In this document: positions 5,006 to 42,137 of the stretch, one piece after another
Position numbering within the stretch: the stretch's first letter is position 1
Layout: each line of letters opens with the position of its first letter
Assembly: GCA_020724905.1 (NCBI GenBank)
Contig: DYGB01000001.1
Coordinates: 65,866 to 129,865, forward strand
Direction of reading: 5' to 3'
Source of the DNA: Candidatus Paceibacter sp.
GTDB lineage: Bacteria; Patescibacteriota; Minisyncoccia; UBA6257; JAGOQP01
DNA length: 64,000 bases
Position numbers and translations under genes: made by a program
The notes under the pieces: generated by a model
Told to the model about the DNA's origin: nothing
Databases searched by the model: none
The model's input: the letters and a program-made list of their open reading frames with translations, nothing else

Positions 5006-6544
5006 ATGAAACCACGTGTTGTTCTATTAATTCTTGATGGATGGGGTATTGGAGAGAGAAATACCTCAAACCCTATTCATGTCATGCAGCCAAAGAATAT
5101 AGAATTCATCAAAAAGAACTTCCCTTCGGGATCACTCCAAGCATCAGGACTGGCAGTAGGGCTTCCCTGGAGAGAAGAAGGAAACAGTGAGGTAGGACAC
5201 CTCACTATGGGCATTGGACGAGTCGTCTATCAACACTTTCCTCGTATTAGTTTGAGTATTCAAGATGGATCGTTTCAAAAAAATGAAGCAATTCAGGGAG
5301 CCATCCAACACGCCCTCCAAAACAACACAACACTACACCTTGCAGGACTCATTAGTGATGGGAATGTTCATTCAGCACTCCCTCATCTACATGAACTCAT
5401 CGCACTTGCACAAAAAGCAGGCGTCTCATGGAAACTCCATGCATTTACCGATGGACGAGACACTGATCCAACAAGTGCATGGTCACTTCTCCAAACACTT
5501 CCTCTCCAACATATCGCTAGTATTTCTGGACGATTCTATGCTATGGACAGAGACAAGCACTGGGACCTTACCCAAAAAGCATATGATGCAATGACCGGGG
5601 AAGCCCCTATTATCTCTCACCATGATATCCAGAGTCATATAGAAAAGACATACGCAAAAAACCTCAATGATGAGTTTATAGTTCCTGTTGGTATTGATTC
5701 AGCTGACAATGCACTACACGATAACGATGCACTGTTCTTTTTCAACTTCAGAGAAGATCGTATGAGACAGCTTGGAGAACTTTTCCTCAAACCATCCCCG
5801 GAACATGGAAACATAAAATCATACACCAATCTCCATATTGCATCGATGACACAGATACGAGAAGATTTCACCATTCCTATCGCCTTCCCTCCTCAACAGA
5901 TAGATACAAGTCTTGGAAAGACTCTCTCAGAGAATGGAAAAATGCAACTCCGTATCGCTGAAACGCAAAAATATGCTCACGTAACATTTTTCTTTAATGG
6001 ACTCACTGACAAACCCTTTAAAAACGAATACCGCATCCTCATTCCCTCAAAAACAACTCCTCGACAAGATGAAGATCCCGCAATGCAAACCCCAGCCATT
6101 ACACAACGACTCATACAATCAATAGAAGAGGGACTCTTTGATTTTACCCTGGTAAATATCGCTTCTCCTGACATGATCGCACATACCGGAAACTACAATG
6201 CCTCAAAAGAAGCTGTCGCTCTTGTTGATGAATATGTTGGAAAAATTCTTGATGCAGTGCTTAGACATAACGTTACCCTCCTTATCACCGCAGACCATGG
6301 AAACATGGAACGACTTTTCGATCCCCTTACTGGAGAACCTGAAACAAAACACGATCCAAATCCTGTACCCCTCTATCTTATCCACTCATCACTTAAAAAA
6401 CCACGAGATGATGCATATATCCAGGAACGAGAACGCTACACAATAGGGATGCTCTCAGATATTGCTCCAACTATTCTTGATATTCTTTCCATCCCAAAAC
6501 CATCTCACATGACAGGTCAAAGCCTCCTTAAACAACTTCTCTAA
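5006..6544 (+). CDS. gpmI: 2,3-bisphosphoglycerate-independent phosphoglycerate mutase
   Basis: N-terminus MKPRVVLLILDGWGIGE and the C-terminal metalloenzyme block TADHGNME. At 512 aa it is typical of iPGM. Confidence 0.9.
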   Translation: MKPRVVLLILDGWGIGERNTSNPIHVMQPKNIEFIKKNFPSGSLQASGLAVGLPWREEGNSEVGHLTMGIGRVVYQHFPRISLSIQDGSFQKNEAIQGAIQHALQNNTTLHLAGLISDGNVHSALPHLHELIALAQKAGVSWKLHAFTDGRDTDPTSAWSLLQTLPLQHIASISGRFYAMDRDKHWDLTQKAYDAMTGEAPIISHHDIQSHIEKTYAKNLNDEFIVPVGIDSADNALHDNDALFFFNFREDRMRQLGELFLKPSPEHGNIKSYTNLHIASMTQIREDFTIPIAFPPQQIDTSLGKTLSENGKMQLRIAETQKYAHVTFFFNGLTDKPFKNEYRILIPSKTTPRQDEDPAMQTPAITQRLIQSIEEGLFDFTLVNIASPDMIAHTGNYNASKEAVALVDEYVGKILDAVLRHNVTLLITADHGNMERLFDPLTGEPETKHDPNPVPLYLIHSSLKKPRDDAYIQERERYTIGMLSDIAPTILDILSIPKPSHMTGQSLLKQLL

Positions 6545-9044
6545 AAGAAAGTGTGTTTTCTCCTTCAAGAAACATCTCAATACGCATTCCTTTACTAAGA
6601 CGCCCTGAAAGAAGTGCGTGAGAAAGAAACGATACAATATGTTTTTCAATAGCTCGTTTTAGTGGACGAGCTCCAAATGACGGATCAAATCCCTCCTGAG
6701 AGATGAAAGATACTAGTTCTTCAGAAAAACTCACTGCTACTCCATTACTCTCATGTACTCGCTTTGAAAGGGAAGTAAGTTGAAGACGAGCAATCTTACG
6801 AATATGCTCAAAGGATAACGGCTTAAAGGTAACAATGCGTGAAAAACGATTCACCAATTCTGGGCGAAGAACTTCAGACAGTTTCCCCTTTAATGCCTCA
6901 GCAATAGTATCAATATCTTTTCCTTCCTTAAGAGATTCTTGAATAAACACTGAATGAGCATTCGATGTTGCAATAATAATCGTATGAGAAAAATCAATCT
7001 TTCGCCCAAACACATCGGTTAACACCCCCTCATCAAGTACCTGTAAGAAAAGTTGCAGGATATCTTGGTGAGCTTTTTCAAACTCATCAAGAAGTACAAT
7101 GCTGTAAGGAGAGTGTGCAACAGATTCACTAAAGGCACCAACAATTTTCCCATCAGACGATCCAATAAATCTCTGGATACTTCCCTTCTCTTGATACTCA
7201 GACATATCAAACCGAACTAATAATTTTTCAGAACCAAAATACAAAGAAGCAAGAGATTTGGAAAGTTCTGTTTTCCCTACCCCTGTAGGGCCAACAAAAA
7301 GAAATGAAGCAATAGGACCCTTTCCTGAAGAAAGTCCACTACGATACGAACGAAGTGCCTCAGATACTGCTCCAACAGCTTCATCTTGATTGATGTATCG
7401 TTCATGAATACGTTCTTCTAAACGAAGTAGTTCAGAGGCTTCATGGGTAGATGCTTTTTGAATAGGAACGGATGAACGTTCTTCAACAAGCGCAATAACA
7501 TCAGATTCCTTTACCATACGTCTCTTCCTTTCTCGTTTCACCCGAGCAAATACCTCACGAAGTACTTCTTGTGCACTTGAAGGAAGTGGAGCTTGAGTTA
7601 TATAGCGAGCAGATAACTTGACAGCAGCACGTACTGCAGCAAATGTGATTCGAATTCCTAACTGTTTTTCTAAAATAACAGCATCATACACAAGTAATCG
7701 TGTCGCATCTTCTTCTCCAATCTGCTCAATAGGAATCCTCTCAAATAACTGAGAGAGACTCTTGTTCATATCAATATACTGAGAATAAAGATGTGGTGTT
7801 GTTGTTCCAATCACAGGGAAAAGACCATTACGAAGGAGTGGTGTTAATACATCAAATAACCGAACCCCTTCTCGTGTCTGTGTTTTTTCAAGAAGATGAA
7901 TATCAGGGATATAGAGAATAATATTTCCTGCACGAGAGATTTCTGAGACAATCATTTGAAGTGTTGTATAAATATCATCACTCCCCCCTGAAAGAATTCT
8001 CCCCAAAGACAAAGAAACGACACGTCGATCAAATAATTCCCCAGGAACAGCATCAGAAAGAATTTGAAATGCGAGATGATGTACAATTGCTTCTTTCCCT
8101 ACCCCCGCTTCCCCTACGAGCAATACATTCCGTTGTCCTGATTTTGAAAGCGCATCAAGGATCTGATGGTACTCAGTATCATGTCCAATGAGAAATCCTC
8201 CTCGTCCACTTCGTACAACATCGGTAATATCATCAGATACCCTATCAAGATAGGGAGTAGGACGTGATGTTAGAGTTCTGTTAACTCGATGGGCCTTAAT
8301 ACGAGACAGCGTCTTTGCAAATCCACCCGTCACCGCAGGAAGATGTCTTTGTGAAAGCGCAACACCAAATGAAATAGCAATAGAAACATCTTTCTGTGAC
8401 AAAGAGTACATATCAAAGATACGTGCAAGATGAGATGAAGGAGAAGAAACAATACCAGCGAATAATAAATCATCCCCAATAACATCTTTTTTGTGAATCA
8501 GTGCCTCTGCTCCTGCATACAAGGCAATATTCTTTAAAATCTCCATAACCTCAGCCTTCTCCTGTTCTCCATCACTATGTTCAAATGCCTCAGTAACATC
8601 TTTACGTAACTGAGAAACATCTAACTCTAATCGTTCACAAATCCATACGACAGAAGGCTTTTTCAATAATTCAGAAAACAGTGCGAGGTGAAGGTCTCCT
8701 TTTTGAAGTCGTGCTTTCTCAAATGCAGCAACGAGGATACGTAGTGATTTCTTATCAATACACAATCCAATGTTATTCCCCGGGACTCTTCCTAAAAATA
8801 AATCTCTTACCCGATAATGAGCTGAGGAAAGATGGAATATATGATCAAGGAGTATAAGAAATAGTAACCCTCCCCACCATCGAAGCGCCTCAACATCAGA
8901 GAGTAGTAGTGCAACGGTAAGACCAATACAAACAACAAAACAGATATAAAAAACAATTCGAGTAAACACCCTCTCTGTATGAGAAAGAGCAAATATTCGT
9001 CGATGAAATGTTACTTTTTCTAAAGGTATAAGTGAGTCTTTCAT
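6528..9044 (-). CDS. Clp/Hsp100-family AAA+ ATPase (ClpC/ClpB-like) with a membrane-anchored N-terminus and degenerate NBD1
   Basis: NBD2 has intact Walker A (FLFVGPTGVGKTELSKSLA) and Walker B (IVLLDEFEKAH). NBD1 has a non-canonical Walker A (GEAGVGKEAIV, Glu instead of Ser/Thr) and lacks the Walker B catalytic Glu (ILYIPDIHLL). Two Clp_N-like repeats follow two predicted N-terminal TM helices (IVFYICFVVCIGLTVALLL / GGLLFLILLDHIFHL). The middle domain is short. Confidence 0.8.
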   Translation of the reverse strand: MKDSLIPLEKVTFHRRIFALSHTERVFTRIVFYICFVVCIGLTVALLLSDVEALRWWGGLLFLILLDHIFHLSSAHYRVRDLFLGRVPGNNIGLCIDKKSLRILVAAFEKARLQKGDLHLALFSELLKKPSVVWICERLELDVSQLRKDVTEAFEHSDGEQEKAEVMEILKNIALYAGAEALIHKKDVIGDDLLFAGIVSSPSSHLARIFDMYSLSQKDVSIAISFGVALSQRHLPAVTGGFAKTLSRIKAHRVNRTLTSRPTPYLDRVSDDITDVVRSGRGGFLIGHDTEYHQILDALSKSGQRNVLLVGEAGVGKEAIVHHLAFQILSDAVPGELFDRRVVSLSLGRILSGGSDDIYTTLQMIVSEISRAGNIILYIPDIHLLEKTQTREGVRLFDVLTPLLRNGLFPVIGTTTPHLYSQYIDMNKSLSQLFERIPIEQIGEEDATRLLVYDAVILEKQLGIRITFAAVRAAVKLSARYITQAPLPSSAQEVLREVFARVKRERKRRMVKESDVIALVEERSSVPIQKASTHEASELLRLEERIHERYINQDEAVGAVSEALRSYRSGLSSGKGPIASFLFVGPTGVGKTELSKSLASLYFGSEKLLVRFDMSEYQEKGSIQRFIGSSDGKIVGAFSESVAHSPYSIVLLDEFEKAHQDILQLFLQVLDEGVLTDVFGRKIDFSHTIIIATSNAHSVFIQESLKEGKDIDTIAEALKGKLSEVLRPELVNRFSRIVTFKPLSFEHIRKIARLQLTSLSKRVHESNGVAVSFSEELVSFISQEGFDPSFGARPLKRAIEKHIVSFLSHALLSGRLSKGMRIEMFLEGENTLSFREVV

Positions 9045-9400
9045 AAGAATAAAGTTATCCCTTTATAGATACAGACAAGAGGAAGGGCAGCCCACATACC
9101 ATACGTACACACAAAGAATAGTGCAGCAAGAATATAATACAAACTCCCCCCTATAACACGAATAAGTCGAACAAAAAACCCAAGCAAGAAACCAACAACA
9201 TTACGTTCTTGATAGAGTGGTGAAAATAAAAAGAAAAGATTTGCACGAACAGCGAGCGTTCTTTCTCCACGAGAGAACACGTATAAAAATCCTGAGTACC
9301 AACGACGAGCACCTTCAACATACCAATGTCGAAAGAATTCAAATAGTCTATAGTATCCAGTTTTTAGTATATAAATACCAGCTCCAACCATTATATGCAT
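9041..9400 (-). CDS. Hypothetical small membrane protein, translationally coupled (ATGA overlap) to the Clp-family ATPase gene
   Basis: 119 aa with 3 predicted TM helices. Its stop overlaps the start of the downstream clp-like gene. No recognisable domain. Confidence 0.4.
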   Translation of the reverse strand: MHIMVGAGIYILKTGYYRLFEFFRHWYVEGARRWYSGFLYVFSRGERTLAVRANLFFLFSPLYQERNVVGFLLGFFVRLIRVIGGSLYYILAALFFVCTYGMWAALPLVCIYKGITLFL

Positions 9401-9423
9401 AGTATCAAAAAATATGTCTTTCT

Positions 9424-9460
9424 GCTACAAAAAACTCCCCTGTATATACAAGGGAGTTTC
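9424..9460 (-). terminator. Rho-independent terminator (hairpin AAACTCCC..GGGAGTTT, then a T-run on the minus strand)
   Basis: Inverted repeat read directly from the sequence. On the minus strand it is followed by TTTTTTG. Confidence 0.55.
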
Positions 9461-9481
9461 ATATGCACTGTCAGTGATGTG

Positions 9482-9679
9482 TTATGCTTGTGGCATTTCA
9501 CCTTCACTGTTTTGATCTGAATCCTCTGAGAATTCTTGCCCAGCCTCTGGCTGTGCTTGTTCCTCAGGAGCTGATTCCTCTGCAGGAACCTCAACTGAAG
9601 GATTCATTGTTTCTTGAGTCTGTGAGTCTTGCTCTTCAGACTGTGGTTGCTGTTGCATGTCGTTGTTTTGCATGTCCAT
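9482..9679 (-). CDS. Putative small acidic, low-complexity protein (65 aa, E/Q/D-rich)
   Basis: The ORF sits between two intrinsic terminators, with a plausible TTGAAA-N17-TATCCT promoter upstream on the minus strand. There is no obvious SD, and it could instead be an sRNA unit. Confidence 0.3.
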   Translation of the reverse strand: MDMQNNDMQQQPQSEEQDSQTQETMNPSVEVPAEESAPEEQAQPEAGQEFSEDSDQNSEGEMPQA

Positions 9680-9761
9680 AATAGATAGTTCGAGTTACTT
9701 GGGCTTACGACGATCGCCGCACACCACATGCAAGGATAGCACAGGTATTCCCTTATTTCAA

Positions 9762-9793
9762 GGAAAAAACCAGGCAACAAGCCTGGTTTTTCA
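9762..9793 (-). terminator. Rho-independent, bidirectional-capable terminator downstream of the giant surface-protein gene
   Basis: AAAAACCAGGC-AACAA-GCCTGGTTTTT. The perfect 9-bp GC-containing stem is flanked by A/T runs on both sides. Confidence 0.65.
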
Positions 9794-9814
9794 TGTATAA
9801 CATTGATACTAGCC

Positions 9815-12800
9815 TTAATTTCCTCCTGGATTGGTCTCACCACCACCAAGATTATATGCCCTGATAGTAACATTACATGAGATATTTCCAAAATCATCAC
9901 TCACCGTACCAACAGCAGTATAGGTACCACTTGTCCTATAATCATGTGTATGTTGAGCAACAGCATATGAAGGCCTTCCATCACCAGGGTTAATTGAATA
10001 ACTCTTTGTTCCGCTCCCCCCCGTAGCATTCAATGTGAACTGAGTCCAGAAAGGCACAATACCTTCTGTTTTTGATGCACTTAACGTACATGCGAGAGGT
10101 TCAATTGGAGCATTAACCGTAACAGGTACTGTAGCAGTAGCTCGTGCGCCTAGAGCATCAGTAACTCTTCCTATCGCAGTATATGAACCCTGTCCATAGG
10201 TATATTCATATGAAGCACTAGAACTGTCCCACCTACCATCTCCATTTGCATCAATCTCATAAGTGTATGGAACAGCTCCATGGTTTGTAACGGTGAGAGT
10301 AAGAGTTGATGTAAGTGGAGCATTTCCTGTAGAAGGAGTTACACTCAAGGAAGCTCCTATTGGATCTGGATCTGGTGGAGAAATATCAGAAACACTAAGT
10401 ACTGAGGAAGCATTCCCCGAAACACCTTCTCGTGATGCAGTCACCGTAAATGGATATGAATTGTTTTCAACACTTGTAGGAACTGAGAAAGTAATTGAGT
10501 GACATGATGCTCCTTCTGGAGCTGTCCCACCATCACAATTACTCCAACTCACATTGGTAAAGGAATGTGTTACTCCAGTAGTAAGTGGTTCTGGAGAAAG
10601 AGAGAAGTGTTCTGGAGAAAGTGCTCCTACACTTCCTGTACGTACTGCTGTGATGGGGAATGAAACAGTTGCAGTAGTTGATCCTCTTTTTATATTCTTT
10701 TGGGCAGGCATAGAAAGAGTGATGCTTCTTGATGGAACAACGACGGTGTCTTTAGTAAGAGTAATCATTGAAGAATCACTGTCGATGACATTTCCCCCAA
10801 TATCATTTACCGCAACACTGAATGTATCTTCAAGTCCATCCTCTGATCCTGGTGCATTTGAAGCAACGCTAACGGTAAGAGTAAATTGTTGTTCATTCTC
10901 ACCAACTCGAGCTCTTGTATTAAGAGCAAATGATCCCGTAACACCAGTAGGAAGGGAATCAACCGAAAGATCTGAAACAGTAAATCCATCTATATCGGCT
11001 GGACGTACAATGTTCACATTATATGTCGTTGAAACACTCCCTGATTTAGGAACTGTAACATTCCTATTATCAGGACTGAGGGTAAGTTCAACACTCTCGC
11101 CTGGTTCTGGATCATCCTCAAGAGACACTCTAAGTGAAGATGTCGTTGACTCTGAAGAACCATCATCTGTTGTTGCTGTAAATGTTATATCCTTTTCTCC
11201 TAGTTGTGTATTAGGACGAACATTAAGCGTTACCGTGAAGATGTCTGAGTTCACATTGTTTGTTGTATGTGTGATGACAGGAGAGCCTATATTTGCATGT
11301 TCAGTAACCACAGTAATATTGTCTTTGGTAAATGCGAAGGAAGGAGTCTTTGCAACGGTTACCTCGTATGAGACTGGAACAGTTCCGGTGGTTGGACGAA
11401 TAACTGTTTCTGATGCAGGAGATGAGGTAACGGTAAAGGTTCCTGGGGATGACACGTTAAGTGAAGATGTTGTCCATTTCGTTTCACTTCCTGTTGAAGC
11501 ATAGAACGTTATATCCTTTTCTCCTAGTTGTGTATTAGGACGAACATTAAGCGTTACCGTGAAGATGTCTGAGTTCACATTGTTTGTTGTATGTGTGATG
11601 ACAGGAGAGCCTATATTTGCATGTTCAGTAACCACAGTAATATTGTCTTTGGTAAATGCGAAGGAAGGAGTCTTTGCAACGGTTACCTCGTATGAGACTG
11701 GAACAGTTCCGGTGGTTGGACGAATAACTGTTTCTGATGCAGGAGATGAGGTAACAGTAAAGGTTCCTGGAGCTGGAGGTGCAGTAATAGTAAGTTTAGC
11801 TTGTCGTGATCGAGATTCAGCACCTGCATTAGCAGTAACAGTAATTAGATGCTCTCCAAGTTGTGCATGTGGGGCAACGGATAGAGTTACCTCAAAGATA
11901 TCAAGAGTAGACCCATTAAGACTATGGGTAACAGATTTCTTTGTAACACCTGTAGGGAGATTGGTAACTGCAATGCTAGAAGGAACAAAGTTAAATGAAG
12001 GATCTGATTTGCTCACAATAGCAGTGTATGAAACATCTTTTGTTCCACTAGTTGGACGTTCTACACTTTTTCCGTCTGGAAGACTAGGAATAAGGGTAAG
12101 GACAAACTGAGGATTAGGAACATCTTCCTCTATAACACTAAAGGATCCTGAATATGTTTGAGAAATACTCTGTCCAGAAGTTGAAGTAGCAGAAACTCCT
12201 ATATCAACGATAAAACCTCCTAACTCAGTTAGCTGTTGTGTATCTACATATACTGCGTATTCATCCTGTGTTGCAGTAGTACTAACACGACTCACCCGTG
12301 CTTCAGGAGATACTGTTGTAGCATCTCCTCCTTTTGCTGGATTTTGTTTTCTTATCTCTAAAATAGTAGCGTTTGTACTTGCTATATTCTGTTTTTCTAA
12401 GATGAGGGTATGTGTACGAACATTACTTTCAAGGCGCACAACTTCTGTATCTACATTAGAAACAGATCCAGAAAGAGAATATGGATCTTCTGCGGGAGCA
12501 GAAACCCCAAGATCAGCAATCGCCTCAGCAATAACTGTTCGAGGAGCATTTGGATGCGCAAACTGAGGAACATCATAAGTAGGAGCGTTAGGAAGTGTAC
12601 GAGTATAAAGATGTAGCTTATACTGACCACCTACCTGAGCTGCATTTGTTGGCGTTGCAGTAAAGAATGCGTTATTCCCATTTGAATACACATTTGAAAA
12701 TGTAATTTCTGTTCCTGTTACATTAACGCCATTTCTATACGCAACAGGTGCCCAATTCCAATTCTGTGTGGTATACACATTTCCACCATCTTGTCTTACA

Positions 12801-14122
12801 ACTTTAAATGTCGTTGCTTGTCCTTTTTGAACAACATCATTTTGCTTTCCATCAAACTGAACACAGTATGGACAGGTGTATGAAACGGAACCTCTTGCAA
12901 CTGCACCATCGTATGATGCTTCAAAATACACAGTATCAGGACTATATCCATCTGGCTGGAAAAAGACTCCAGGATCTGAAGCACTGCTCTCTCCAAGCCC
13001 ACTAAGAAGAGCAAACTTTCCAGTGAAAGGATTTACATGATTTGCGGTAAGTTTAAGAAGACTTAGGTTTTGAATATTGTATGCACCAGCATTTAAGATA
13101 GACAGTGATGGACCACCAGCAGCATGAAGATCTATTGGTTGCCATGTTCCTCCTTCTTGGAATACATCAATTGTGATTGTTTCACTTTTTGAAGCTTCTC
13201 CTCTTCCACTATCATAAATGGCGGTAAAGGTAATAGGATGCTTCCGTATTGGAGCATCTTTATAAATACGAAGTGTAAGATATGTTGTGCCAGAAAAGGT
13301 ACTCCCTAACGCACTTCCCCTGGTAAGAGAAACGTCTACTGGATTTGGAGTAACACGAACAAGATCAGTAGATCGTGTACTATTAGAAACAGCAGCAGTA
13401 TAGTACACATCACGATCACCAATGGCACTATTGTCATTAATATACAGATCAACTCTTACGGTAACATCTTTGTATTGATCGGTGGTAGGAGCTTTTATCT
13501 TAACGGTACGATTATTTGGAGCATATCCAACTTTCAAATTTACTGCCCCAATAGCATCATCAGAAGAATTACTCCACACCCACTCTCGAAGAAGGAAATC
13601 TCCCGCCTTTCCAAGGGTAACGCTTTTACTTTCTGGGTACAATGAGATACGAGTTTCTTGTTCTCCTAGATTCAAAAGTCCTGGTAATCTTGTTTGGAGT
13701 GTATTATTGGTATAGTACTCAACCTCTATAGGAAATGAGAGATATCCACCAAATGATCCTGGTATAATCTGAGCAACAACATCAAGTGATGCCTCAGTTC
13801 CATTTTCAAGAGATCCAGGGCCATCTTTAACAAGAGTGAGGGGCCCCTTGTTCTCAACCCCATTAACAAAGAACTTAACTCCTGAGCTACTCATAAGACC
13901 AGAAATAACAATCTGATCAGCGATTTCTGGGAAGAAGGCATAGACAGAGAGCTCAACATCTCCTCCACTTGAAGGCACAGCAATGTTTGCTCCCGATCCA
14001 GTAATATCCTCACCATTTATAGTTGCAAAAGAGGTTCCATCTGCTTGAGCAAACGATCCCCCAATCATAAACAATGATGCGACGATAGCACAAATTAAAA
14101 ATACCTTAGACAAATATCTCAT
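9815..14122 (-). CDS. Giant secreted cell-surface protein (1435 aa) with Ig-like/PKD repeat domains; adhesin-like
   Basis: N-terminal signal peptide (MRYLSKVFLICAIVASLFMIGGSFAQA). T/S/V-rich beta-strand repeats include two identical 108-aa repeats. Two C-terminal PKD-like domains (...YTYGQGSYTAIGRVTDALGARATATV... and ...HDYRTSGTYTAVGTVSDDFGNISCNVTI...). Confidence 0.8.
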   Translation of the reverse strand: MRYLSKVFLICAIVASLFMIGGSFAQADGTSFATINGEDITGSGANIAVPSSGGDVELSVYAFFPEIADQIVISGLMSSSGVKFFVNGVENKGPLTLVKDGPGSLENGTEASLDVVAQIIPGSFGGYLSFPIEVEYYTNNTLQTRLPGLLNLGEQETRISLYPESKSVTLGKAGDFLLREWVWSNSSDDAIGAVNLKVGYAPNNRTVKIKAPTTDQYKDVTVRVDLYINDNSAIGDRDVYYTAAVSNSTRSTDLVRVTPNPVDVSLTRGSALGSTFSGTTYLTLRIYKDAPIRKHPITFTAIYDSGRGEASKSETITIDVFQEGGTWQPIDLHAAGGPSLSILNAGAYNIQNLSLLKLTANHVNPFTGKFALLSGLGESSASDPGVFFQPDGYSPDTVYFEASYDGAVARGSVSYTCPYCVQFDGKQNDVVQKGQATTFKVVRQDGGNVYTTQNWNWAPVAYRNGVNVTGTEITFSNVYSNGNNAFFTATPTNAAQVGGQYKLHLYTRTLPNAPTYDVPQFAHPNAPRTVIAEAIADLGVSAPAEDPYSLSGSVSNVDTEVVRLESNVRTHTLILEKQNIASTNATILEIRKQNPAKGGDATTVSPEARVSRVSTTATQDEYAVYVDTQQLTELGGFIVDIGVSATSTSGQSISQTYSGSFSVIEEDVPNPQFVLTLIPSLPDGKSVERPTSGTKDVSYTAIVSKSDPSFNFVPSSIAVTNLPTGVTKKSVTHSLNGSTLDIFEVTLSVAPHAQLGEHLITVTANAGAESRSRQAKLTITAPPAPGTFTVTSSPASETVIRPTTGTVPVSYEVTVAKTPSFAFTKDNITVVTEHANIGSPVITHTTNNVNSDIFTVTLNVRPNTQLGEKDITFYASTGSETKWTTSSLNVSSPGTFTVTSSPASETVIRPTTGTVPVSYEVTVAKTPSFAFTKDNITVVTEHANIGSPVITHTTNNVNSDIFTVTLNVRPNTQLGEKDITFTATTDDGSSESTTSSLRVSLEDDPEPGESVELTLSPDNRNVTVPKSGSVSTTYNVNIVRPADIDGFTVSDLSVDSLPTGVTGSFALNTRARVGENEQQFTLTVSVASNAPGSEDGLEDTFSVAVNDIGGNVIDSDSSMITLTKDTVVVPSRSITLSMPAQKNIKRGSTTATVSFPITAVRTGSVGALSPEHFSLSPEPLTTGVTHSFTNVSWSNCDGGTAPEGASCHSITFSVPTSVENNSYPFTVTASREGVSGNASSVLSVSDISPPDPDPIGASLSVTPSTGNAPLTSTLTLTVTNHGAVPYTYEIDANGDGRWDSSSASYEYTYGQGSYTAIGRVTDALGARATATVPVTVNAPIEPLACTLSASKTEGIVPFWTQFTLNATGGSGTKSYSINPGDGRPSYAVAQHTHDYRTSGTYTAVGTVSDDFGNISCNVTIRAYNLGGGETNPGGN
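11184..11772. repeat. Near-perfect tandem duplication, 2 x 324 bp (about 1 mismatch over >260 bp), inside the giant surface-protein gene
   Basis: The string gttatatccttttctcctagttgtgtattaggacgaacattaagcgttaccgtgaagatgtctgagttcacat... recurs at 11184 and 11508. The protein-level repeat GTFTVTSSPASETVIRPTTGTVPVSYEVTVAKTPSFAFTKDNITVVTEHANIGSPVITHTTNNVNSDIFTVTLNVRPNTQLGEKDITF appears twice. Confidence 0.9.
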
Positions 14123-14233: not shown

Positions 14234-15310
14234 CTATTTCAAAAAGAGCATCTTTTTTGAGATAGGTTTTTTATGGGGGGAGGTAAGAGTATACATATAG
14301 ACACCGCTAGGAAGATTACTTCCAGAAAAATCAACTTCAAGACGATGATTTCCAGCTCCATAGTATCCATCAGCAACTCTCATTACTCGCTCTCCAAGGA
14401 TAGAATAGATATCAACGCGTATATATCCACTCACTGGAAGAGAAAATGTAATATATGTCGATGGATTAAAAGGATTGGGATAGTTCTGATACAGAATATA
14501 CTCTGAAACGAGATTATCCTCTTCACGATACGAAGTAAGGGAAAAATCATCCAATACCAAAAATGTTGTGTCGTTCCCATGTTTATCGTAGTCAACAGCT
14601 ACAATCTTAGAGAACCACCATCCTAATTCTTGTGTGTAAGATTCAGTTGTTTCCATCGAAGACATCACGTTTATTGTGAGCCCTTCATAAACAAAACCCG
14701 TATCAACATTTTGGTTATACAGAGCCTCAGGCATCTTAATAACAAAGGTGACTGGAGTATGTACCGAATCCCAAGGAGTACTACTTCCAATACCAAGCAT
14801 ATACACACCACGATAATGAGTTTCTTCTCTGTACCAGATATTGAAATCAAACCACGGTGTAGGCGTTGTATCACTTTCAAAAAAATCAAGATTGGCAGAA
14901 ATCCAAAACTCTCGAGGAAGGGTAAATGTTTGAACATTCTTTCTAAAAAATGTATTCATCCAAAAGAGTGAATCTTCTGAAAATGGAATAGGAGTAGACT
15001 CTCCTTTGTGATAAAAAGTCTGACCCTCTTGTCCATATTTTTCAGAAAAATAAGATCCAATCTCACGATAGATACCATCGGATGCAAAGGGAGAAAATTC
15101 CCACCCATTTACTGATCCCACATAGGGAGAATCAGCAAGGGAATAGGTATAATTAGGTACTACTAGATTTGAATCGGCATACAATAGTGTTGTGCCCCTA
15201 TCAATATCAACTACTTTCATAGGACGTTCCACAACAATATACTCCTGAGCTATAGGAGCTCGAATAAACACCGTGAAGAGAAAAACAGAAATAATGATAA
15301 TCCGTTTCAT
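14234..15310 (-). CDS. Secreted protein with a C-terminal T9SS-type (Por secretion tail, type A) sorting domain
   Basis: Signal peptide (MKRIIIISVFLFTVFIRAPIAQE). The last ~85 aa are YQNYPNPFNPSTYITFSLPVSGYIRVDIYSILGERVMRVADGYYGAGNHRLEVDFSGSNLPSGVYMYTLTSPHKKPISKKMLFLK, which matches the Por_Secre_tail consensus closely. Confidence 0.75.
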   Translation of the reverse strand: MKRIIIISVFLFTVFIRAPIAQEYIVVERPMKVVDIDRGTTLLYADSNLVVPNYTYSLADSPYVGSVNGWEFSPFASDGIYREIGSYFSEKYGQEGQTFYHKGESTPIPFSEDSLFWMNTFFRKNVQTFTLPREFWISANLDFFESDTTPTPWFDFNIWYREETHYRGVYMLGIGSSTPWDSVHTPVTFVIKMPEALYNQNVDTGFVYEGLTINVMSSMETTESYTQELGWWFSKIVAVDYDKHGNDTTFLVLDDFSLTSYREEDNLVSEYILYQNYPNPFNPSTYITFSLPVSGYIRVDIYSILGERVMRVADGYYGAGNHRLEVDFSGSNLPSGVYMYTLTSPHKKPISKKMLFLK

Positions 15311-26782: not shown

Positions 26783-26823
26783 AGTATGACTCTATCACCC
26801 CCTCTTCATTCAAGCAATATGAT

Positions 26824-27927
26824 TTATCTTTCTAGATATCTTTCAAGCTGAGAAAAGAATAATTCTTTTCTAAATCTTTTCTCTACCTCTATGAGAGCAT
26901 GCTCTGAATACTTCTGGTACATATCCCTATCTTCAAGAAGTGTCCTTATAGCATCAGAAAGGGCACCAGAGTCTTTTGGAGGGACGGTAAGTCCTGTTTT
27001 TCCATCTACACTTACCTCAGGAACTCCCGTAGGAAGAGCTGTGTTAATAACGGGCTTCCCACACGCAAGAGCTTCTATCTGCACAATACCAAATACTTCT
27101 GAGGATTCTGATGAAGGAAGTACAAATATGTCACAGGCATGATAGTAAGGAACAAGATCATCTACAGGATCGATAATATGAACTCGTTCTTCTAGGTTAT
27201 ACTTCCGTATTAATTCAGATAACTCATCTTTAAGGGGTCCATTCCCTATAATCAAAAGTTGCGCATTTACATCTTTCATCGCCTCAATGAGATATGAGAA
27301 TCCTTTGTAGTAAACAAGTCTCCCCACAGAAAGAAGGAGGGGTGTACCATATGTCTTAATAATAGCATTACTCTCCTCTTCTCTTGTAGAATCTTTCCTA
27401 AACGTATCTACATCAATTCCAAAATAAATAACTCTACACTTTTCTACAAACTGAGGAAGTATATATGAGGTCTGTAGTAACGTCTTATTTGAAACAAACA
27501 CATGTGTTGCTTTTTTTAACGTATAGCGAAGAAATGGATCAAATAACTTTCTTAGAAACTTCTGTTTTACAATATCAGAGTGATACCACACCACTACTTC
27601 TTTATCTCTTCCAAAAAGCCAGTATGCAATATAAGTAAGAGGAAAGGGGTGATGGATAAAGATAAGATCAGTTTCCTTTACTAGTTTTCTAAATAGAAAA
27701 AAGAAATCAATTGAAACAGGCATTCCTTTTACTATCCCCATGCTAGAAGCTCGATGGGTGACAACACCATCAACACCATCTTTCTTTCTTTTCCCCTGTG
27801 GCTGACAAACAAGATTAACAAGATCTATATCATCTTTTTTATTAAAATACATAGCTATATCACGAGCTATTGTTTCAATTCCTCCTATCCAAGGATAATA
27901 GAGTTTATTTATTTGAAGAATTTTCAT
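26824..27927 (-). CDS. Glycosyltransferase family 4 (GT-B, Glycos_transf_1)
   Basis: C-terminal signature EVFGIVQIEALACGKPVINTALPTGVPEVSVDGKTGLTV. Confidence 0.85.
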   Translation of the reverse strand: MKILQINKLYYPWIGGIETIARDIAMYFNKKDDIDLVNLVCQPQGKRKKDGVDGVVTHRASSMGIVKGMPVSIDFFFLFRKLVKETDLIFIHHPFPLTYIAYWLFGRDKEVVVWYHSDIVKQKFLRKLFDPFLRYTLKKATHVFVSNKTLLQTSYILPQFVEKCRVIYFGIDVDTFRKDSTREEESNAIIKTYGTPLLLSVGRLVYYKGFSYLIEAMKDVNAQLLIIGNGPLKDELSELIRKYNLEERVHIIDPVDDLVPYYHACDIFVLPSSESSEVFGIVQIEALACGKPVINTALPTGVPEVSVDGKTGLTVPPKDSGALSDAIRTLLEDRDMYQKYSEHALIEVEKRFRKELFFSQLERYLER

Positions 27928-29077
27928 GTATCTTCTTTATTATATCATCTACCGTATTACTCCTTATATCACAAATAATAACATGAGAAACGAGAGGAAT
28001 CATCGATTTAAAACGTACTAGTCCTCTTTTTGAATATGTTGGAAGATAAAAATTCTTGCAATCAATAAGACAATAGGTCTGTTTCTTTAGTATTATAGAA
28101 AGATGGGTGGGAAAAGATTCTATACCAATAACATACTGAGCATCTAGTAGTAGTCGTGCCAACTCTGGTATCGATAACTGCGTAAGAACAGAAACAGTAT
28201 TAATATCATGTGCAATCATGTTGAGCTTCTCCTCTTGATTCTTCACGCCAGCAAGATATACATGAATTCCACTCTTTGAAATTTCTTTTACTAGAGCTCT
28301 CCATTTATCTATACCCCATCCCCGATTGTTCCCAAATGTTGTAGGGGTAATGACAATATATGTGTCAACAATAGTGCCTACTGATTCAGCAATATTGAAA
28401 AAATGTGAACCCAACACTTCCTTTTTTATTCCCAAAGGAAGTAAAAGTTTATGTAAGTTTTTCCACTCTTCATTATATATATCATAGGGAACAGTTATAT
28501 CTGCCAAAAAATTTCTTTGGGACACATCAAAAGAAATTAAGACTTCAGGTTTAATAAGTTTCCATAAAATATTAGAACTTGGTGGTGAATGACGCGTATT
28601 AATAACAACATCATATTCATTATTTCTAAGAGTCTTTAATGTCCCAATATTTTCCTTAAAAATTTCCCACATTGATGTGTGTAGCTTTTTTCTCCCAGAA
28701 AGAAGCGCTCTAAGCAACAGGGAAATATCATAATACGTATATATACTACTCACACCTTTATTACCCTTTAGTACGGGGAGGGAAGATTCTTGAACAACAT
28801 AATCAATTACTGCATCTGGATATTTCTTTTTTATCGCAGTAATAAGAGTTGTTGATAATAGAACATCCCCTAATTGGTCTATCTTTACAATAAGAATCCT
28901 CTTGGGTTCTTGTTTTAAAGATTTCCCCTTCTCGAAAAGAAAAAATATAGAAAAGATAATATCAAGCAACACACTCACTAGATAATAAATGGCCTTCAAA
29001 AAACCCAGAAAACCACCTTTTAAATAAGATACCCAAAGTATAAACCAATTTTTAACTCTATTTTTGAGGTGCTCCAT
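27905..29077 (-). CDS. Glycosyltransferase family 9 (ADP-heptose:LPS heptosyltransferase-like) with an N-terminal TM helix
   Basis: ILIVKIDQLGDVLLSTTLITAIKKKYPDAVIDYVV matches the GT9 N-terminal signature KILVIR.SALGD....P....LK..YP.A.I. A hydrophobic segment precedes it. Confidence 0.65.
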   Translation of the reverse strand: MEHLKNRVKNWFILWVSYLKGGFLGFLKAIYYLVSVLLDIIFSIFFLFEKGKSLKQEPKRILIVKIDQLGDVLLSTTLITAIKKKYPDAVIDYVVQESSLPVLKGNKGVSSIYTYYDISLLLRALLSGRKKLHTSMWEIFKENIGTLKTLRNNEYDVVINTRHSPPSSNILWKLIKPEVLISFDVSQRNFLADITVPYDIYNEEWKNLHKLLLPLGIKKEVLGSHFFNIAESVGTIVDTYIVITPTTFGNNRGWGIDKWRALVKEISKSGIHVYLAGVKNQEEKLNMIAHDINTVSVLTQLSIPELARLLLDAQYVIGIESFPTHLSIILKKQTYCLIDCKNFYLPTYSKRGLVRFKSMIPLVSHVIICDIRSNTVDDIIKKIHENSSNK

Positions 29078-29907
29078 TATTTTACAAGTTTAAGTATTGC
29101 TTTATGTAAAAAAGATCTAGCTTTTGTTGGAATTATAGCTTTTAGAAAAATATAGAAAAGATGAGAACACCTAATAAGTAGAGCTCTTTTGTGCTTTAAA
29201 AATATTTTTCTATTTTTAAAAATAATATGAGCTTTACCTTTTAGTTGCTTAAGATACCTTCCTTTGGTTATTTGATTCTTGTGTTTGTAGTAGATAGTGA
29301 GAGGTTCATCGATATAACAACCCTTGAGATTCCAACCTCTTACACTCCATTCATCGTCCTCTAACCCAATTAAATCTCTATCTTCATCAAAAAGCCCAAC
29401 TGATAAAAATGAATCTCTTCTATACACATGTGAACTTGGCACACTTACCCCTACACCAGCAAGTTTCAAAAAACTAAGTTTATCTGAACTAATACCAGAA
29501 AATCGTTTTATTTCTTTTTCTCCTGTGTCCAAATATTGAATTTCATCTGCTGTATAACAAAAATCAAATTCTTTATGTTTTTCTAAAAGAGAGATTTGTT
29601 TTTCAAGTTTCTCAGGATGCCACCCATCATCAGAATCAAGAAATGCTATATAATCACTCGAAGAATTATTTATGGCCTTATTTCTAGCGGCTCCTATCCC
29701 TTTATTCTCTTGAAAGAAATATTTTATCCTTGAGTCTGACTTTGACAATTCTCCAATGACTTCTTTTGAAGAATCAGTAGATCCATCATCAGTAATTAAG
29801 AGTTCCCAATTTTTATAAGTCTGAGCTTGCACACTTTTAATACACCGGGTAATAAGATCAGACCTATTAAATGTAGGAATTATTATTGATACCAGTTTAT
29901 TTTTCAT
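29077..29907 (-). CDS. Glycosyltransferase family 2
   Basis: VSIIIPTFNRSDLITRCIKSVQAQTYKNWELLITDDGSTD, plus a DSDD (DxD) motif. Confidence 0.8.
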   Translation of the reverse strand: MKNKLVSIIIPTFNRSDLITRCIKSVQAQTYKNWELLITDDGSTDSSKEVIGELSKSDSRIKYFFQENKGIGAARNKAINNSSSDYIAFLDSDDGWHPEKLEKQISLLEKHKEFDFCYTADEIQYLDTGEKEIKRFSGISSDKLSFLKLAGVGVSVPSSHVYRRDSFLSVGLFDEDRDLIGLEDDEWSVRGWNLKGCYIDEPLTIYYKHKNQITKGRYLKQLKGKAHIIFKNRKIFLKHKRALLIRCSHLFYIFLKAIIPTKARSFLHKAILKLVK

Positions 29908-30869
29908 GATGCTTTCTCTAAAGGATTTCTACTAATAAACCTTCTCTTTATAAAAGAAACCATACGATAAATCCTTGATCCAAAAAACGAAAGAAGAAGT
30001 AAGAAAAATATATACAAATTAAACTTTCTTTTTAGGACATCAACATACACACGTCTTCCAATACTCATTTTACCAGCAAGACAATAATAATTCCCAAGAA
30101 TTCTTTTATTAAACAATAATAAAGATTCTTCAAACTCATTATATTTAGCAACGTGTTTTTCTATAAAGTATTCGAGTTCTTTTGCCTTCTTTAAAAAAGA
30201 AAGCTTTTTCCCAGCACTATCAGGCCGAGAATGCCAAAAAAATAGTGCTTCACGAATATAACCAAATGAAAAGCCAGTAAATAAAATTCTAAGATATAAA
30301 TCTCTGTCATCACTCCATTTCATGTTCTCATCGAATCCACCAACTACATTAAAAACATCTCTTTTGATAATTACACTAGAACAAGAATGAATAAAATTTC
30401 TTTTTAAAATATTTTTTTTAAAACAATCCTGCAAAGCCATTGAGTCTTGGTATATTCCAAGGGGTCTGTTGTTAGTAATCACAAAAAAGTTAGAAGCAAC
30501 AAAATCAAATCCCCCCTCCAACAAAAAATTTACCTGTCTTTCAATTTTGTTTGTAACCCATTCATCATCGTGATCTAAGAAAGCAATAAACTCACCCTTA
30601 GACTTTTTAATCCCGATATTTTTAGGATGAGCAGGGCCACCAGAATTTTTTAAAAAACGTATAACTGAGATTCTAGCATCAATTCTTTGAAAATTTTCTA
30701 TAATGCGAACCGTTCCGTCAGTCGATGCGTCATCCACAACAATTAACTCCCAATTTGGATATGTTTGTCTTCTAACAGAAGATATAGTTCGTTCTATAAA
30801 CTCTTCTGCATTATGAGTAGGGATAATAATAGAAACAGAAGGAGTGTTATTTTTTTTTAAGTTAAACAT
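29904..30869 (-). CDS. Glycosyltransferase family 2
   Basis: VSIIIPTHNAEEFIERTISSVRRQTYPNWELIVVDDASTDGT, plus a DHDD motif. Overlaps the downstream GT2 gene by 4 nt. Confidence 0.8.
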   Translation of the reverse strand: MFNLKKNNTPSVSIIIPTHNAEEFIERTISSVRRQTYPNWELIVVDDASTDGTVRIIENFQRIDARISVIRFLKNSGGPAHPKNIGIKKSKGEFIAFLDHDDEWVTNKIERQVNFLLEGGFDFVASNFFVITNNRPLGIYQDSMALQDCFKKNILKRNFIHSCSSVIIKRDVFNVVGGFDENMKWSDDRDLYLRILFTGFSFGYIREALFFWHSRPDSAGKKLSFLKKAKELEYFIEKHVAKYNEFEESLLLFNKRILGNYYCLAGKMSIGRRVYVDVLKRKFNLYIFFLLLLSFFGSRIYRMVSFIKRRFISRNPLEKAS

Positions 30870-30980
30870 AGATAATATTTAAAAAAACATAATTCTCAAC
30901 CCTATGCAGCCTAACCTAGATTGTATAGTAACACACACTTAACTCAAGATATAGATAAATTAGAACGTCTTTATCTTTTC

Positions 30981-32432: not shown

Positions 32433-33352
32433 TTTTTAAAAACAAAATTTCCTCCGTATTCTTTAATATTTGATAGATCTCCTTCTATCTCATGGATATC
32501 TCCATTTTCATCAATATAATGTGATTTATATCCCATATTTCGAAGAAGTCCTACGGCCTTCATCGATATGTTTTTTCCCATATTACCACTCCATACCTCA
32601 AGAATTACAATAGGAGAATTGCTTCTTAGAAAAATTTCTCCTCCTTCAAGTACTGATTTCTCCCCACCCTCCACGTCTATTTTCAAAACCGAGGGGGTTA
32701 TGTTTTTAGATTTTATGTACGAATCCAATGTTATCGTATTAATATTATGTGATTCAGAATAATTCCAACTTTCCCATTCTTTCATATTAACTGTATCTTT
32801 ATTTAATGTGCTTATACCAGAGTTTTCTTTTGAAGTATACAGCTTTGATCTTCCTGTAAAACTTGAAATTGCTAAATTCTCAATAAATGTATTTTCTCTT
32901 TTCCCATTTTTGAGAAGAAAATAAAAAACCTTTGTGTTCGGCTCAAAAGAACATACCTTCTTGCAAATTTCTTGAGCGAGATATGTATAAAATCCATAAT
33001 TTGCCCCTATATCAAAAAATACGTCGTTTCCTTGAAGATTCTTAATAAGATACTTTACAAGTCGAAATTCCTCATCGTTTCCACTCGGAAATCCAAAAAC
33101 AAAAATTCTAAATGACTCCCAATCTAATACGGGAATTCTAATAAATTTTCCAAAGACAAGTTTTATATCTCTTTCTCTTCTCCCTAAAACACCAAGTTTA
33201 AAAAGAAGAGAATAAAAATATAGCTTAGGAAAAGAAAAAAGTCTTTTTATTTTCTTTTTAAAACCTGGTCCAGATATTTTTTCTAATCTCTTTTTATTTT
33301 CTTCTGTCTTTTTCAATAAAGACAAAAAGATAATTGTTTTAGGATTTGACAT
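32429..33352 (-). CDS. FkbM-family methyltransferase (Methyltransf_21)
   Basis: VFFDIGANYGFYT SAM-binding motif and a ...KIDVEGGE... block, typical of FkbM. Confidence 0.75.
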   Translation of the reverse strand: MSNPKTIIFLSLLKKTEENKKRLEKISGPGFKKKIKRLFSFPKLYFYSLLFKLGVLGRRERDIKLVFGKFIRIPVLDWESFRIFVFGFPSGNDEEFRLVKYLIKNLQGNDVFFDIGANYGFYTYLAQEICKKVCSFEPNTKVFYFLLKNGKRENTFIENLAISSFTGRSKLYTSKENSGISTLNKDTVNMKEWESWNYSESHNINTITLDSYIKSKNITPSVLKIDVEGGEKSVLEGGEIFLRSNSPIVILEVWSGNMGKNISMKAVGLLRNMGYKSHYIDENGDIHEIEGDLSNIKEYGGNFVFKK

Positions 33353-33848
33353 ATATAAATTATATCTTCTAATCTATTCCAATTTAAGAACATGTTTTTT
33401 TAATGATGGTCCGAGTCTAAAATTACCATTACTTTATCATTGTCACTTATTAGTTCTCTATATCTATAATTTCTTTTGGTGTAGATGAACCGGATAAACA
33501 TTTTATTCTTTTATGTCTTGGTTTATCTTTTCTACCTTTGATATCTATCGTTATTATCTTCCTATTATTTACTAAATCACATATAAAAGCATGGGGCACT
33601 TCTTTCGTGTATAGTCCCAAGTTTAGTCATTATATATTGTATGTGGTCTTATTTCAAAAATTTGTATACGTCCACCACTTTTTTGAGACTCCTTCCTGTA
33701 TTGAGAGGTGTCTGTATCATACACTGAAAGGGAGAGAGAAGACCTTTTGTTCCTTTCCATGTATTGAAACACATCATATATGAGCCCTACAAGACAGCCT
33801 CATGTATGTGAACTTATGTAATATTAAATACAAATTTAACAAAAAACC

Positions 33849-34637: not shown

Positions 34638-34713
34638 AATGGTTTCTTTAATAATCTAGTTAAGGTGATAAAAAATAAAACTACTTTCATATACAATTTA
34701 CTTATATATTATT

Positions 34714-36882: not shown

Positions 36883-36969
36883 ATCTATCTATAATATCAG
36901 AAGAAATACACAAGGCAAACAAAAAGACCCCACGAGGGGGTCTTTTTGAGACTGATTAACGATCTACGC

Positions 36970-41534: not shown

Positions 41535-42137
41535 CTATTTATCCATTTTTGTCTTAATAATGGTATCAATAATACCATATTTCACCGCCTCATCAGAAGA
41601 TAGATAAAAGTCTCTATCAGTATCATTTTCAATCTTTTGAAGTTTCTGACCAGTATGACGAGCTAATATCTCGTTAAGGCGCTTTTTAATCTTGATAATC
41701 TGTTTTGCGGTAATTTCAATTTCAGATGCCTGTCCTTCAGCTCCTCCCATAACCTGGTGAAGCATAATCTCAGAGTTAGGAAGTGCAAATCGCTTCTTTT
41801 TAGCACCAGCCCCGAGAAGAACAGCTCCCATAGAAGCAGCAATACCAACACAGATAGTAGAAACATCAGGTTTCACATGTTGCATCGTGTCATAGATAGC
41901 AAGACCAGCAGTCACTGACCCTCCAGGACTATTGATATAGATCTGAATATCTTTTTTAGAATCATCATGATCAAGTAACAGAAGCTGAGCAATAACGGTG
42001 TTTGCAACCTCGTCACTAATAACGCCTCCAATAAAGATAATACGCTCCTTTAATAACCGTGAGTAAATATCATACGCACGTTCTCCAAACTGGTTTTTGT
42101 CCACCACCATAGGAACTAAATTCATAGCACGTAACAA
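41535..42137 (-). CDS. clpP: ATP-dependent Clp protease proteolytic subunit
   Basis: ...[21 protein letters not shown]...[15 protein letters not shown]... is the classic ClpP Ser-His-Asp core. 200 aa. Confidence 0.9.

Follow-up and report, generated by a model that had tools for sequence, protein, structure and literature searches.

A membrane-anchored Hsp100/Clp-type ATPase with a single predicted active ring and a small membrane partner in Patescibacteria

Introduction

Hsp100/Clp proteins are textbook AAA+ machines that grip a polypeptide with pore-loop tyrosines and thread it, and mutation of the pore-loop Tyr abolishes translocation in ClpB, ClpA, and ClpX. Among double-ring AAA+ proteins, NSF-D2, p97-D1, and Pex1/6-D1 are rings that no longer hydrolyse nucleotide and have a role in assembly instead. 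Here we describe a gene pair of Candidatus Paceibacter sp. (Patescibacteriota) that encodes a predicted membrane-anchored ATPase of the Hsp100/Clp type and a small membrane protein. The pair lies on a stretch of 64,000 nucleotides (hereafter the window; NCBI GenBank assembly GCA_020724905.1, contig DYGB01000001.1, positions 65,866 to 129,865 of the forward strand), of which a preliminary description had been made from the sequence alone. We followed up that description computationally, and the pair probably represents a type of membrane ATPase machine that has not been described before.

Torsins are phylogenetically most similar to Clp/Hsp100, are associated with the membrane via an N-terminal hydrophobic segment, lack aromatic pore loops, and have the membrane proteins LAP1 and LULL1 as cofactors (PMC5425593). 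Torsin has no Arg finger of its own, and the cofactor, which has a degenerate AAA fold, supplies it; processive threading by Torsins was judged improbable by the authors of the same review (PMC5425593). A non-exhaustive literature search turned up no account of a bacterial Hsp100 that is membrane-anchored or lacks the pore loops, nor any of the family to which the small partner protein belongs.

Gene pair and overall fold

The two genes lie on the reverse strand, denoted (-), and overlap by four bases:

6528..9044 (-), gene of the membrane-anchored Hsp100/Clp-like ATPase, 838 amino acids (aa) (open reading frame (ORF) with Pfam, NCBIfam, PDB phmmer, and AF2/Foldseek)
9041..9400 (-), gene of the small partner, 119 aa (ORF, homologues, synteny)
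9041..9044 (-), ATGA, in which the stop of the small ORF (TGA) overlaps the start of the ATPase gene (ATG) (sequence)

Both ORFs given in the preliminary description were found again, with their overlap at 9041-9044. The overlap suggests translational coupling, and because of it and of the arrangement of the flanking genes, described at the end, the small ORF and the ATPase gene look like a two-gene unit. On the contigs of relatives, the two genes likewise either overlap or have no more than 84 nt between them.

The two-ring Hsp100 layout that had been proposed for the 838-aa protein was borne out by sequence and structure comparisons. Pfam assigned AAA_2, ClpB_D2-small, AAA, and AAA_lid_9; phmmer against PDB sequences gave ClpB, ClpC, and ClpA at 1e-107 to 1e-85, with ClpB as the best match (1e-107). 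The AlphaFold2 (AF2) model, built on 73 relatives, had a mean predicted local distance difference test score (pLDDT) of 88.8, and Foldseek matched it to ClpC and ClpB structures at E values of 1e-52 to 1e-39, ClpC being the best (1e-52). The scores with all named NCBIfam equivalog models were far below the trusted cut-offs: 447 bits against 1232 for ClpB (TIGR03346), 426.7 bits against 993 for ClpA (TIGR02639), and 372 bits against 885 for ClpV/TssH (TIGR03345). No type VI secretion genes were seen near the pair, either in the window or in the related loci.

The coiled-coil M-domain of the ClpB type is absent, D1-small running straight to the D2 linker in both the alignment and the AF2 model; at this site, the ClpB-type sequences in the alignment are longer than the ATPase by approximately 125 residues. 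The same alignment shows the ClpC M-domain in the ClpC sequences and none in the ATPase. By its predicted fold, the ATPase is a member of the Hsp100/Clp superfamily, and by its motifs it fails the features that define ClpB, ClpA/ClpC, and the threading Hsp100s.

One predicted competent ring and the loss of the pore-loop tyrosines

The classification covered the query together with the 120 best-matching sequences from the database. Proteins with an N-terminal hydrophobic anchor formed the anchored class (n = 86) and the soluble ClpB/ClpC proteins the other (n = 34); the query subfamily comprised 64 full-length sequences with at least 38% identity. In the second ring (D2), the following features were located:

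6531..7409 (-), D2 AAA+ module with D2-small, residues 546-838 (Pfam, alignment, invariant columns)
7269-7292 (-), D2 Walker A, GPTGVGKT (alignment)
7137..7163 (-), D2 pore-1 loop, GSSDGKIVG, without an aromatic residue (alignment)
7077-7097 (-), D2 Walker B, VLLDEFE (alignment)
6960-6968 (-), D2 sensor-1, TSN (alignment)
6843-6851 (-), D2 Arg finger, NRF (alignment)
6666-6674 (-), D2 sensor-2, GAR (alignment)

The second nucleotide-binding domain (NBD) had been described as canonical. This was correct for the catalytic motifs, which are all intact; K591, T592, D653, E654, N695, R733, and R793 were invariant among 73 sequences. It was not correct for the pore-1 loop, which is four residues shorter and contains no aromatic residue. 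When GSSDG----KIVG was aligned with ClpB GAPPGYVGYEEGG, the 4-residue deletion took out the Tyr of GYVG. Most of the anchored members have the D2 loop shortened by four residues, and the residue replacing the Tyr is variable (K/R/S/A/T) rather than conserved.

In the first ring (D1), the following features were located:

7515..8192 (-), D1 AAA+ module, residues 285-510 (alignment, conservation)
8091..8114 (-), D1 Walker A, GEAGVGKE, with Glu in place of the Mg-binding Thr/Ser (aligned to ClpB GEPGVGKT)
7959..7994 (-), D1 pore-1 loop region, LSGGSDDIYTTL, in which the Tyr of KYRG is absent (alignment)
7896..7919 (-), D1 Walker B, ILYIPDIH, with Asp changed to Pro and the catalytic Glu to Asp (aligned to ILFIDELH)
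7734..7760 (-), D1 Arg-finger site, SLSQLFERI versus the canonical ALERRFQ, both Arg residues being lost (alignment)

The preliminary description had read GVGKE, with Glu for Ser/Thr, as the Walker A of this ring and YIPDIH, without the catalytic Glu, as its Walker B. The residue-for-residue alignment with ClpB GEPGVGKT and ILFIDELH bore out both readings: the GKE and DIH positions had been correctly assigned, and the motifs are broken. The P-loop GxxGxGK itself is kept despite the change of Thr to Glu. Within the subfamily, Glu follows the P-loop Lys in 48/64 members, and the Walker B pair is Pro-Asp in 44/64 and Pro-Glu in 8/64 (Pro-Asp/Glu, 52/64). Since the altered motifs are themselves conserved (GKE 48/64, P-D/E 52/64), the changes in D1 are under selection and not the outcome of random decay. 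The mean column identity was 0.63 in D1 versus 0.78 in the D2 large domain. D1 is thus predicted to be folded and conserved but non-catalytic, and D2 is the only ATPase site predicted to be competent.

Across the anchored class, a D1 pore loop of the KYRG type was found in 0/86 proteins, a D2 G[YF][VI]G loop in 0/86, and the D1 RRF Arg fingers in 0/86, and the Walker A and B motifs of D2 were kept in 85/86. The soluble ClpB/ClpC proteins kept every motif (34/34). The term "single-active-ring unfoldase", under which the ATPase had been introduced, therefore holds in its first half, as D1 is crippled and D2 is the sole competent site; "unfoldase" does not follow, because the pore-loop Tyr is gone from both rings (0/86). 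Three anchored proteins (P0078, P0080, and P0100) have canonical D1 Walker motifs, yet lack the pore loops and Arg fingers. Judging from these three, the clade is defined by anchoring and the loss of the pore loops, which happened first, and the degeneration of the D1 Walker motifs came later, in several lineages.

All anchored proteins bearing an organism name are from Patescibacteria. The genes present in the window and the named relatives of both proteins likewise point to a Patescibacteria genome of the Paceibacteria/Parcubacteria type. The full-length identity of the ATPase is 40-50% across Paceibacteria-type genomes, and the pair is retained in genomes of the candidate phyla radiation (CPR) as small as ~0.56-0.8 Mb; owing to this retention, the module is probably important for Patescibacteria. 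Sequence conservation thus marks the ATPase and its partner as a two-gene module conserved throughout Patescibacteria, not as a peculiarity of one gene.

Membrane hairpin and N-terminal region

The region ahead of D1 contains two predicted transmembrane (TM) helices, an N-domain, and a linker:

8901..8957 (-), TM1, residues 30-48, IVFYICFVVCIGLTVALLL (hydropathy, AF2)
8829..8885 (-), TM2, residues 54-72, LRWWGGLLFLILLDHIFHL, with a conserved intramembrane Asp67 (hydropathy, AF2)
8295..8759 (-), Clp_N-type N-domain, residues ~96-250, eight helices (hhalign, TIGR02639, AF2)
8193..8285 (-), family-specific, highly conserved linker before D1 (column conservation 0.71)

The Wimley-White octanol sums over 19-mers were -12.5 kcal/mol for TM1 and -10.6 kcal/mol for TM2, compared with -2.8 kcal/mol or weaker for the soluble domains, and AF2 placed helices at residues 22-47 and 52-70 with a pLDDT of ~90. 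In 62 relatives, the mean number of Lys and Arg residues was 3.1 before TM1, 0.9 in the 7-residue connecting loop, and 3.2 after TM2. Because this difference between the flanks and the loop is the positive-inside signature, the sequence fits an N-in/C-in TM hairpin. All three lines support the two N-terminal TM helices that had been predicted, and with them the tethering of the ATPase to the membrane.

The short outside loop of 5-7 residues between TM1 and TM2 contains a conserved "SD" motif, and TM2 has a conserved Asp and a conserved His within it or at its end (LxD...H). These conserved charged residues in TM2 hint at an intramembrane function, for example, binding of an ion or of the partner.

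A linker of approximately 25 residues leads from TM2 to the N-domain. The Clp_N domain, which had been placed behind the TM helices, was recovered by hhalign of the N-region of the family with canonical N-domains (97.9% probability, E 3.5e-13), and the TIGR02639 alignment begins at residue 102; Pfam Clp_N on the ATPase itself was below threshold. The linker before D1 has the consensus NRaWTxRPTPxLD...GFLIGH, and its conservation (0.71) is second only to that of the D2 large domain.

Two variants of the N-terminal arrangement or its gene context are lineage-specific elaborations. The anchored relative P0064 (887 aa) has an extra N-terminal zinc-ribbon-like CxxC...CxxC segment ahead of the TM region, and in locus L008 (1187-3637) the pair adjoins a gene for a DUF87/TrwB-like ATPase.

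The small partner protein

The upstream ORF had been described as a membrane protein with three TM helices. Only one span, at residues ~88-114, is uncharged and strongly hydrophobic, and the other two helices could not be upheld:

9059..9139 (-), single clear TM helix of the small partner, residues ~88-114 (hydropathy)

The family-averaged hydropathy of this span is 2.0-2.7, it contains no charged residues, and positive charge precedes it; the Wimley-White minimum of -10.9 kcal/mol falls at residues 94-112. Since the sole uncharged span is preceded by positive charge, the protein is predicted to have a single TM helix in N-in/C-out orientation and a cytoplasmic helical N-terminal part. The AF2 model (pLDDT 94.6) consists of two long helices, 2-49 and 68-118. 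The start codon is possibly that of Met4 (116 aa), as the closest homologues have 116 aa. Close relatives share the motifs FFRHWY and LFxPLYQE, and the wider family FPxWWYSRG and FxPMYGQxDWxG.

A word-based search found just three close homologues of the partner. Profile searches gave 129 proteins of the family, and 798 clusters (50% identity) at E<=1e-3; nearly all are 105-150 aa long and lack a Pfam domain, and those that have a name are called "hypothetical". The partner itself had no match in Pfam, NCBIfam, or PADLOC, nor a sequence-profile match in PDB even at E<=10. ExbB- and CorA-like folds were considered for it and rejected, because Foldseek gave no PDB match better than E=5.5 and the resemblances were not significant.

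The association with the ATPase gene is strict. On the contigs of five subfamily members and two distant anchored relatives, an unannotated ORF of 114-124 aa lies directly upstream on the same strand, and all seven align with the 119-aa ORF of the window. A hidden Markov model (HMM) of the partner, run over the six-frame ORFs of 88 fetched loci, gave an adjacent same-strand match, or a fused N-terminus (L007), in 28 related loci as well as in the window. All 28 are of Patescibacteria type, and nothing was found in approximately 50 non-CPR Clp loci. Two Patescibacteria loci had no partner match, and in both there is little or no DNA upstream of the ATPase gene.

Furthermore, the partner forms the N-terminal part of a fusion protein with the ATPase in P0078 (BLASTP 1e-10; 1e-13 with an HMM built without P0078) and in P0074 (1.8e-7 with the broad A4 profile; 41% identical to the stand-alone partner of L006). 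P0313 (414 aa) is probably another partner-ATPase fusion; it looks like an over-extended gene call that runs from the partner into the beginning of the ATPase. In P0078, the partner TM helix is followed by one further TM helix before the cytoplasmic ATPase, an arrangement that fits the N-in/C-out topology of the partner. Because the small protein is permanently fused to the ATPase in some lineages, it would be a subunit rather than a substrate. The same-strand synteny and the two fusions uphold the upstream ORF as a membrane partner, and its sequences define a conserved CPR-specific family of predicted membrane proteins. A 120-aa ORF upstream of the P0078 fusion (L007, 4642-5004) was also considered as a partner and is unrelated to the family.

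Proposed machine and alternative explanations

We propose that the pair forms a two-subunit membrane AAA+ machine, specific to CPR bacteria, in which D2 drives a switch or remodeller acting on or through the partner; to this reading as a whole we assign a probability of roughly 0.55. The large subunit would derive from an Hsp100/Clp double-ring ATPase, tethered by the N-in/C-in hairpin, and would form the usual Hsp100 hexamer, with its N-domain/D1 face kept against the membrane, on the cytoplasmic side, by the short linkers. D1 would be a non-hydrolysing ring, nucleotide-binding or purely structural, that serves as an assembly scaffold, by analogy with NSF-D2, p97-D1, and Pex1/6-D1. In those proteins, too, one of two stacked rings is non-catalytic, although they belong to another AAA clade, and the inactive ring here would be the membrane-proximal D1. 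D2 would be the only motor. The partner (~117 aa) would be a stoichiometric subunit, the fusions, the overlap, and the synteny pointing indirectly to a physical complex; its TM helix may pack with the hairpin, and its conserved cytoplasmic part may contact the N-domain and the pre-D1 linker. ATP hydrolysis in D2 would drive a conformational switch or remodelling of the membrane partner or of the complex, in a Torsin-like or NSF-like manner.

Because the pore-loop Tyr has been lost throughout the clade, processive threading of polypeptides by this machine seems unlikely. It is also most likely neither a DnaK-coupled disaggregase nor a ClpP activator, because no member has an M-domain or a ClpP-docking loop. 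Compared with ClpB/Hsp104, the ATPase has in common the Clp_N domain, two AAA+ modules, D2-small, the D2 catalytic motifs, and the lack of a ClpP-docking loop; unlike them, it has no M-domain (the DnaK-coupling element), no pore-loop Tyr, and a dead D1 as predicted from its motifs, and it carries a TM hairpin at its N-terminus and comes with an obligate small membrane partner. With ClpC/ClpA it shares the overall fold (best Foldseek match ClpC, E 1e-52) and, in the case of ClpA, the lack of a long M-domain and a phmmer alignment in a single stretch. Unlike ClpC/ClpA, it has no IGL/LGF loop, no ClpC M-domain, and no pore-loop Tyr, and it combines a degenerate D1 with a membrane anchor.

Torsin, of the eukaryotic endoplasmic reticulum and nuclear envelope, is the nearest functional precedent, and by analogy the machine may work like it. 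Both are related to Clp/Hsp100, are associated with the membrane, lack aromatic pore loops, and have a dedicated membrane cofactor. Torsin is a single ring, whereas the ATPase has two rings, with a degenerate D1 and a Clp_N domain; the ATPase has an Arg finger of its own in D2, the invariant R733, which Torsin lacks; and the partner is a helical hairpin without an AAA fold (no PDB structure matched its fold at an E value below 5). The machine would be cytoplasmic and bacterial, and its likeness to Torsin would be one of mechanism.

Several points weigh against the proposed switch or remodeller. The shortened D2 loop keeps a semi-conserved hydrophobic residue (x-I/V-x-G), and four members carry K-I/T-Y/F-G in this loop; some gripping ability of the D2 loop is possible. 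A Clp_N domain and an entry pore facing the membrane would also be expected of a membrane-protein extractase with the geometry of FtsH or Msp1. The Glu beside the P-loop Lys could abolish nucleotide binding by D1 altogether. Finally, the machine differs from Torsin in that the Arg finger of D2 is its own and the fold of the partner is not AAA-like.

The strongest competing reading makes the ATPase a membrane-protein extractase or a quality-control unfoldase; we regard it as unlikely but as a serious contender. The bilayer-facing hexamer would pull membrane or secreted proteins through its non-aromatic pore loops, with the partner as an adaptor, by an FtsH- or Msp1-like mechanism without the protease. 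Judging from the topology, the N-terminal anchor would set the entry face of the ring at the membrane as in FtsH, Msp1, and Bcs1, putting the N-domain/D1 face there; the D2 motor is intact, the Clp_N domain that binds substrates and adaptors in Hsp100s is retained, and the D2 loop keeps the shape SPDG-x-(I/V)-x-G, hence is under selection. FtsH, Msp1, and Bcs1, however, each have a single ring and aromatic pore loops, and they fall into the classical AAA clade and outside Hsp100; FtsH is also a protease. Here the aromatic pore-1 residues have been lost from both rings in 86/86 proteins, the D2 loop is mostly four residues shorter, and the position replacing the Tyr (K/R/S/A/T) is not conserved. 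Mutant pore loops in place of those with Tyr are generally known to abolish translocation in ClpB, ClpA, and ClpX.

An improbable alternative is that the ATPase is the equivalent of ClpC/ClpA and feeds ClpP by unconventional docking. The clpP gene, which had been noted about 32 kb away, was located as follows, ~32.5 kb from the ATPase gene:

41535..42137 (-), clpP, alone between nusA (42168-43505) and a D-2-hydroxyacid dehydrogenase gene (40521-41534)

There is no clpX beside it, tblastn revealed no other Clp-type ATPase in the 64 kb, and D2 would face the cytoplasm, in a position where docking of ClpP is possible. The relatives are also annotated as "ATP-dependent Clp protease ATP-binding subunit" in public databases, where the partner is a "hypothetical protein". 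On the other hand, no member has the IGF/LGF/IGL helix-loop-helix insertion after the TSN of sensor-1, whereas the ClpC sequences in the same alignment have LGF/MGF; the failure to find an IGF-type loop by eye in the preliminary description was thus due to its absence. Moreover, there is no pore-loop Tyr to feed a protease, the score is far under the NCBIfam ClpA cut-off (427 versus 993), and clpX may lie elsewhere in the genome, the view here being 64 kb. The label "Clp protease ATP-binding subunit" is contradicted by these sequence features and should not be used.

A role as an anti-phage defence ATPase akin to DolB of Dodola or to PDC-M37B is far less probable still, although PADLOC gave matches to PDC-M37B (2e-36) and DolB (2e-28). 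These matches are limited to the generic ClpB-D2-like AAA region (residues 460-811), and the identification was ruled out as generic D2 homology; the partner has no PADLOC match, and the pair lies among housekeeping genes and occurs in many Patescibacteria lineages, unlike patchy defence islands. Least credible is a degenerating or pseudo-enzymatic ClpC/ClpB leftover beside a chance ORF: the D1 motifs are broken and CPR genomes are reduced and fast-evolving, but the full-length identity of 40-50% across Paceibacteria-type genomes, the invariant D2 catalytic residues, the conservation of the altered D1 motifs themselves, and the 798 homologue clusters, strict synteny, and gene fusions of the small ORF speak against it. 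Both defence and simple decay can in effect be excluded.

The proposed D2-driven membrane machine would be of interest beyond this locus. A large bacterial clade has kept the double-ring scaffold and one motor while deleting the gripping loops and silencing one ring, and it has gained membrane anchoring and a small membrane subunit that is obligate. Provided that it is functional, which its conservation indicates, this clade is a natural experiment on an Hsp100 ring without threading, and the poorly understood Torsins have in it a tractable prokaryotic counterpart for comparison. The architecture and its conservation are solid and would surprise a specialist in AAA+ proteins; the cellular role and mechanism are inferential. 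As a tentative extension, which we consider possible but doubtful, the Torsin principle might operate in bacteria on the scale of a phylum, a non-threading Hsp100 ring with a small tail-anchored subunit powering or gating, by ATP hydrolysis in D2, a membrane process essential for episymbiosis. Such a machine would have a collar of approximately 18 TM helices (6 x 3) with the conserved intramembrane Asp in TM2, and might act in envelope or lipid handling or in the assembly of surface structures.

Genes surrounding the pair

The iPGM (phosphoglycerate mutase) gene at 5006-6544 (+) is convergent with the ATPase gene, and their 3' ends overlap by 17 bp (6528-6544); therefore, there is no space for an intergenic terminator. 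In several genomes, the pair has housekeeping genes as neighbours in a similar position, namely, those for thioredoxin reductase, NUDIX, rplT/infC, and iPGM.

Upstream of the small ORF, a hairpin and its T-run come first, next a short acidic ORF, and then the gene of a 1435-aa surface protein. The short ORF (9482-9679 (-), 65 aa) is extremely acidic, rich in Gln and Glu, and without a Pfam match. The 10-bp hairpin with its T-run (~9458-9425) follows this ORF and ends approximately 25 nt before the small partner ORF; the acidic ORF is not conserved beside the pair in other genomes. A scan of 6300-9900 for sigma-70 promoters and terminators gave fewer promoter-like sites than shuffled sequences and did not list the T-run hairpin that is visible by eye, and there was no match to the CIRCE heat-shock operator within the window.

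The putative secreted or surface protein of 1435 aa (9815-14122 (-)), directly upstream of the pair, has a weak C-terminal PKD-like match and two nearly identical tandem repeats of ~110 aa each ("GTFTVTSSPASETVIRPTTGTVPVSYEVTVAKTPSFAFTKDNITVV..."). Beyond it, a 358-aa protein (14234-15310 (-)) carries Por_Secre_tail, the C-terminal sorting domain of type IX secretion (31 bits against a cut-off of 27), which is unexpected for a Patescibacteria genome. Further along the window, a low-GC stretch at ~28-34 kb (GC 0.30-0.32 versus ~0.40 elsewhere) lies inside a gene cluster at ~26800-36900 (-). The products of this cluster are glycosyltransferases (GT1, GT9, and two GT2), a HAD hydrolase, methyltransferases of the FkbM and CmcI types, and a Wzy_C/O-antigen-ligase-like TPR protein; it is probably a surface-glycan cluster that was acquired horizontally.

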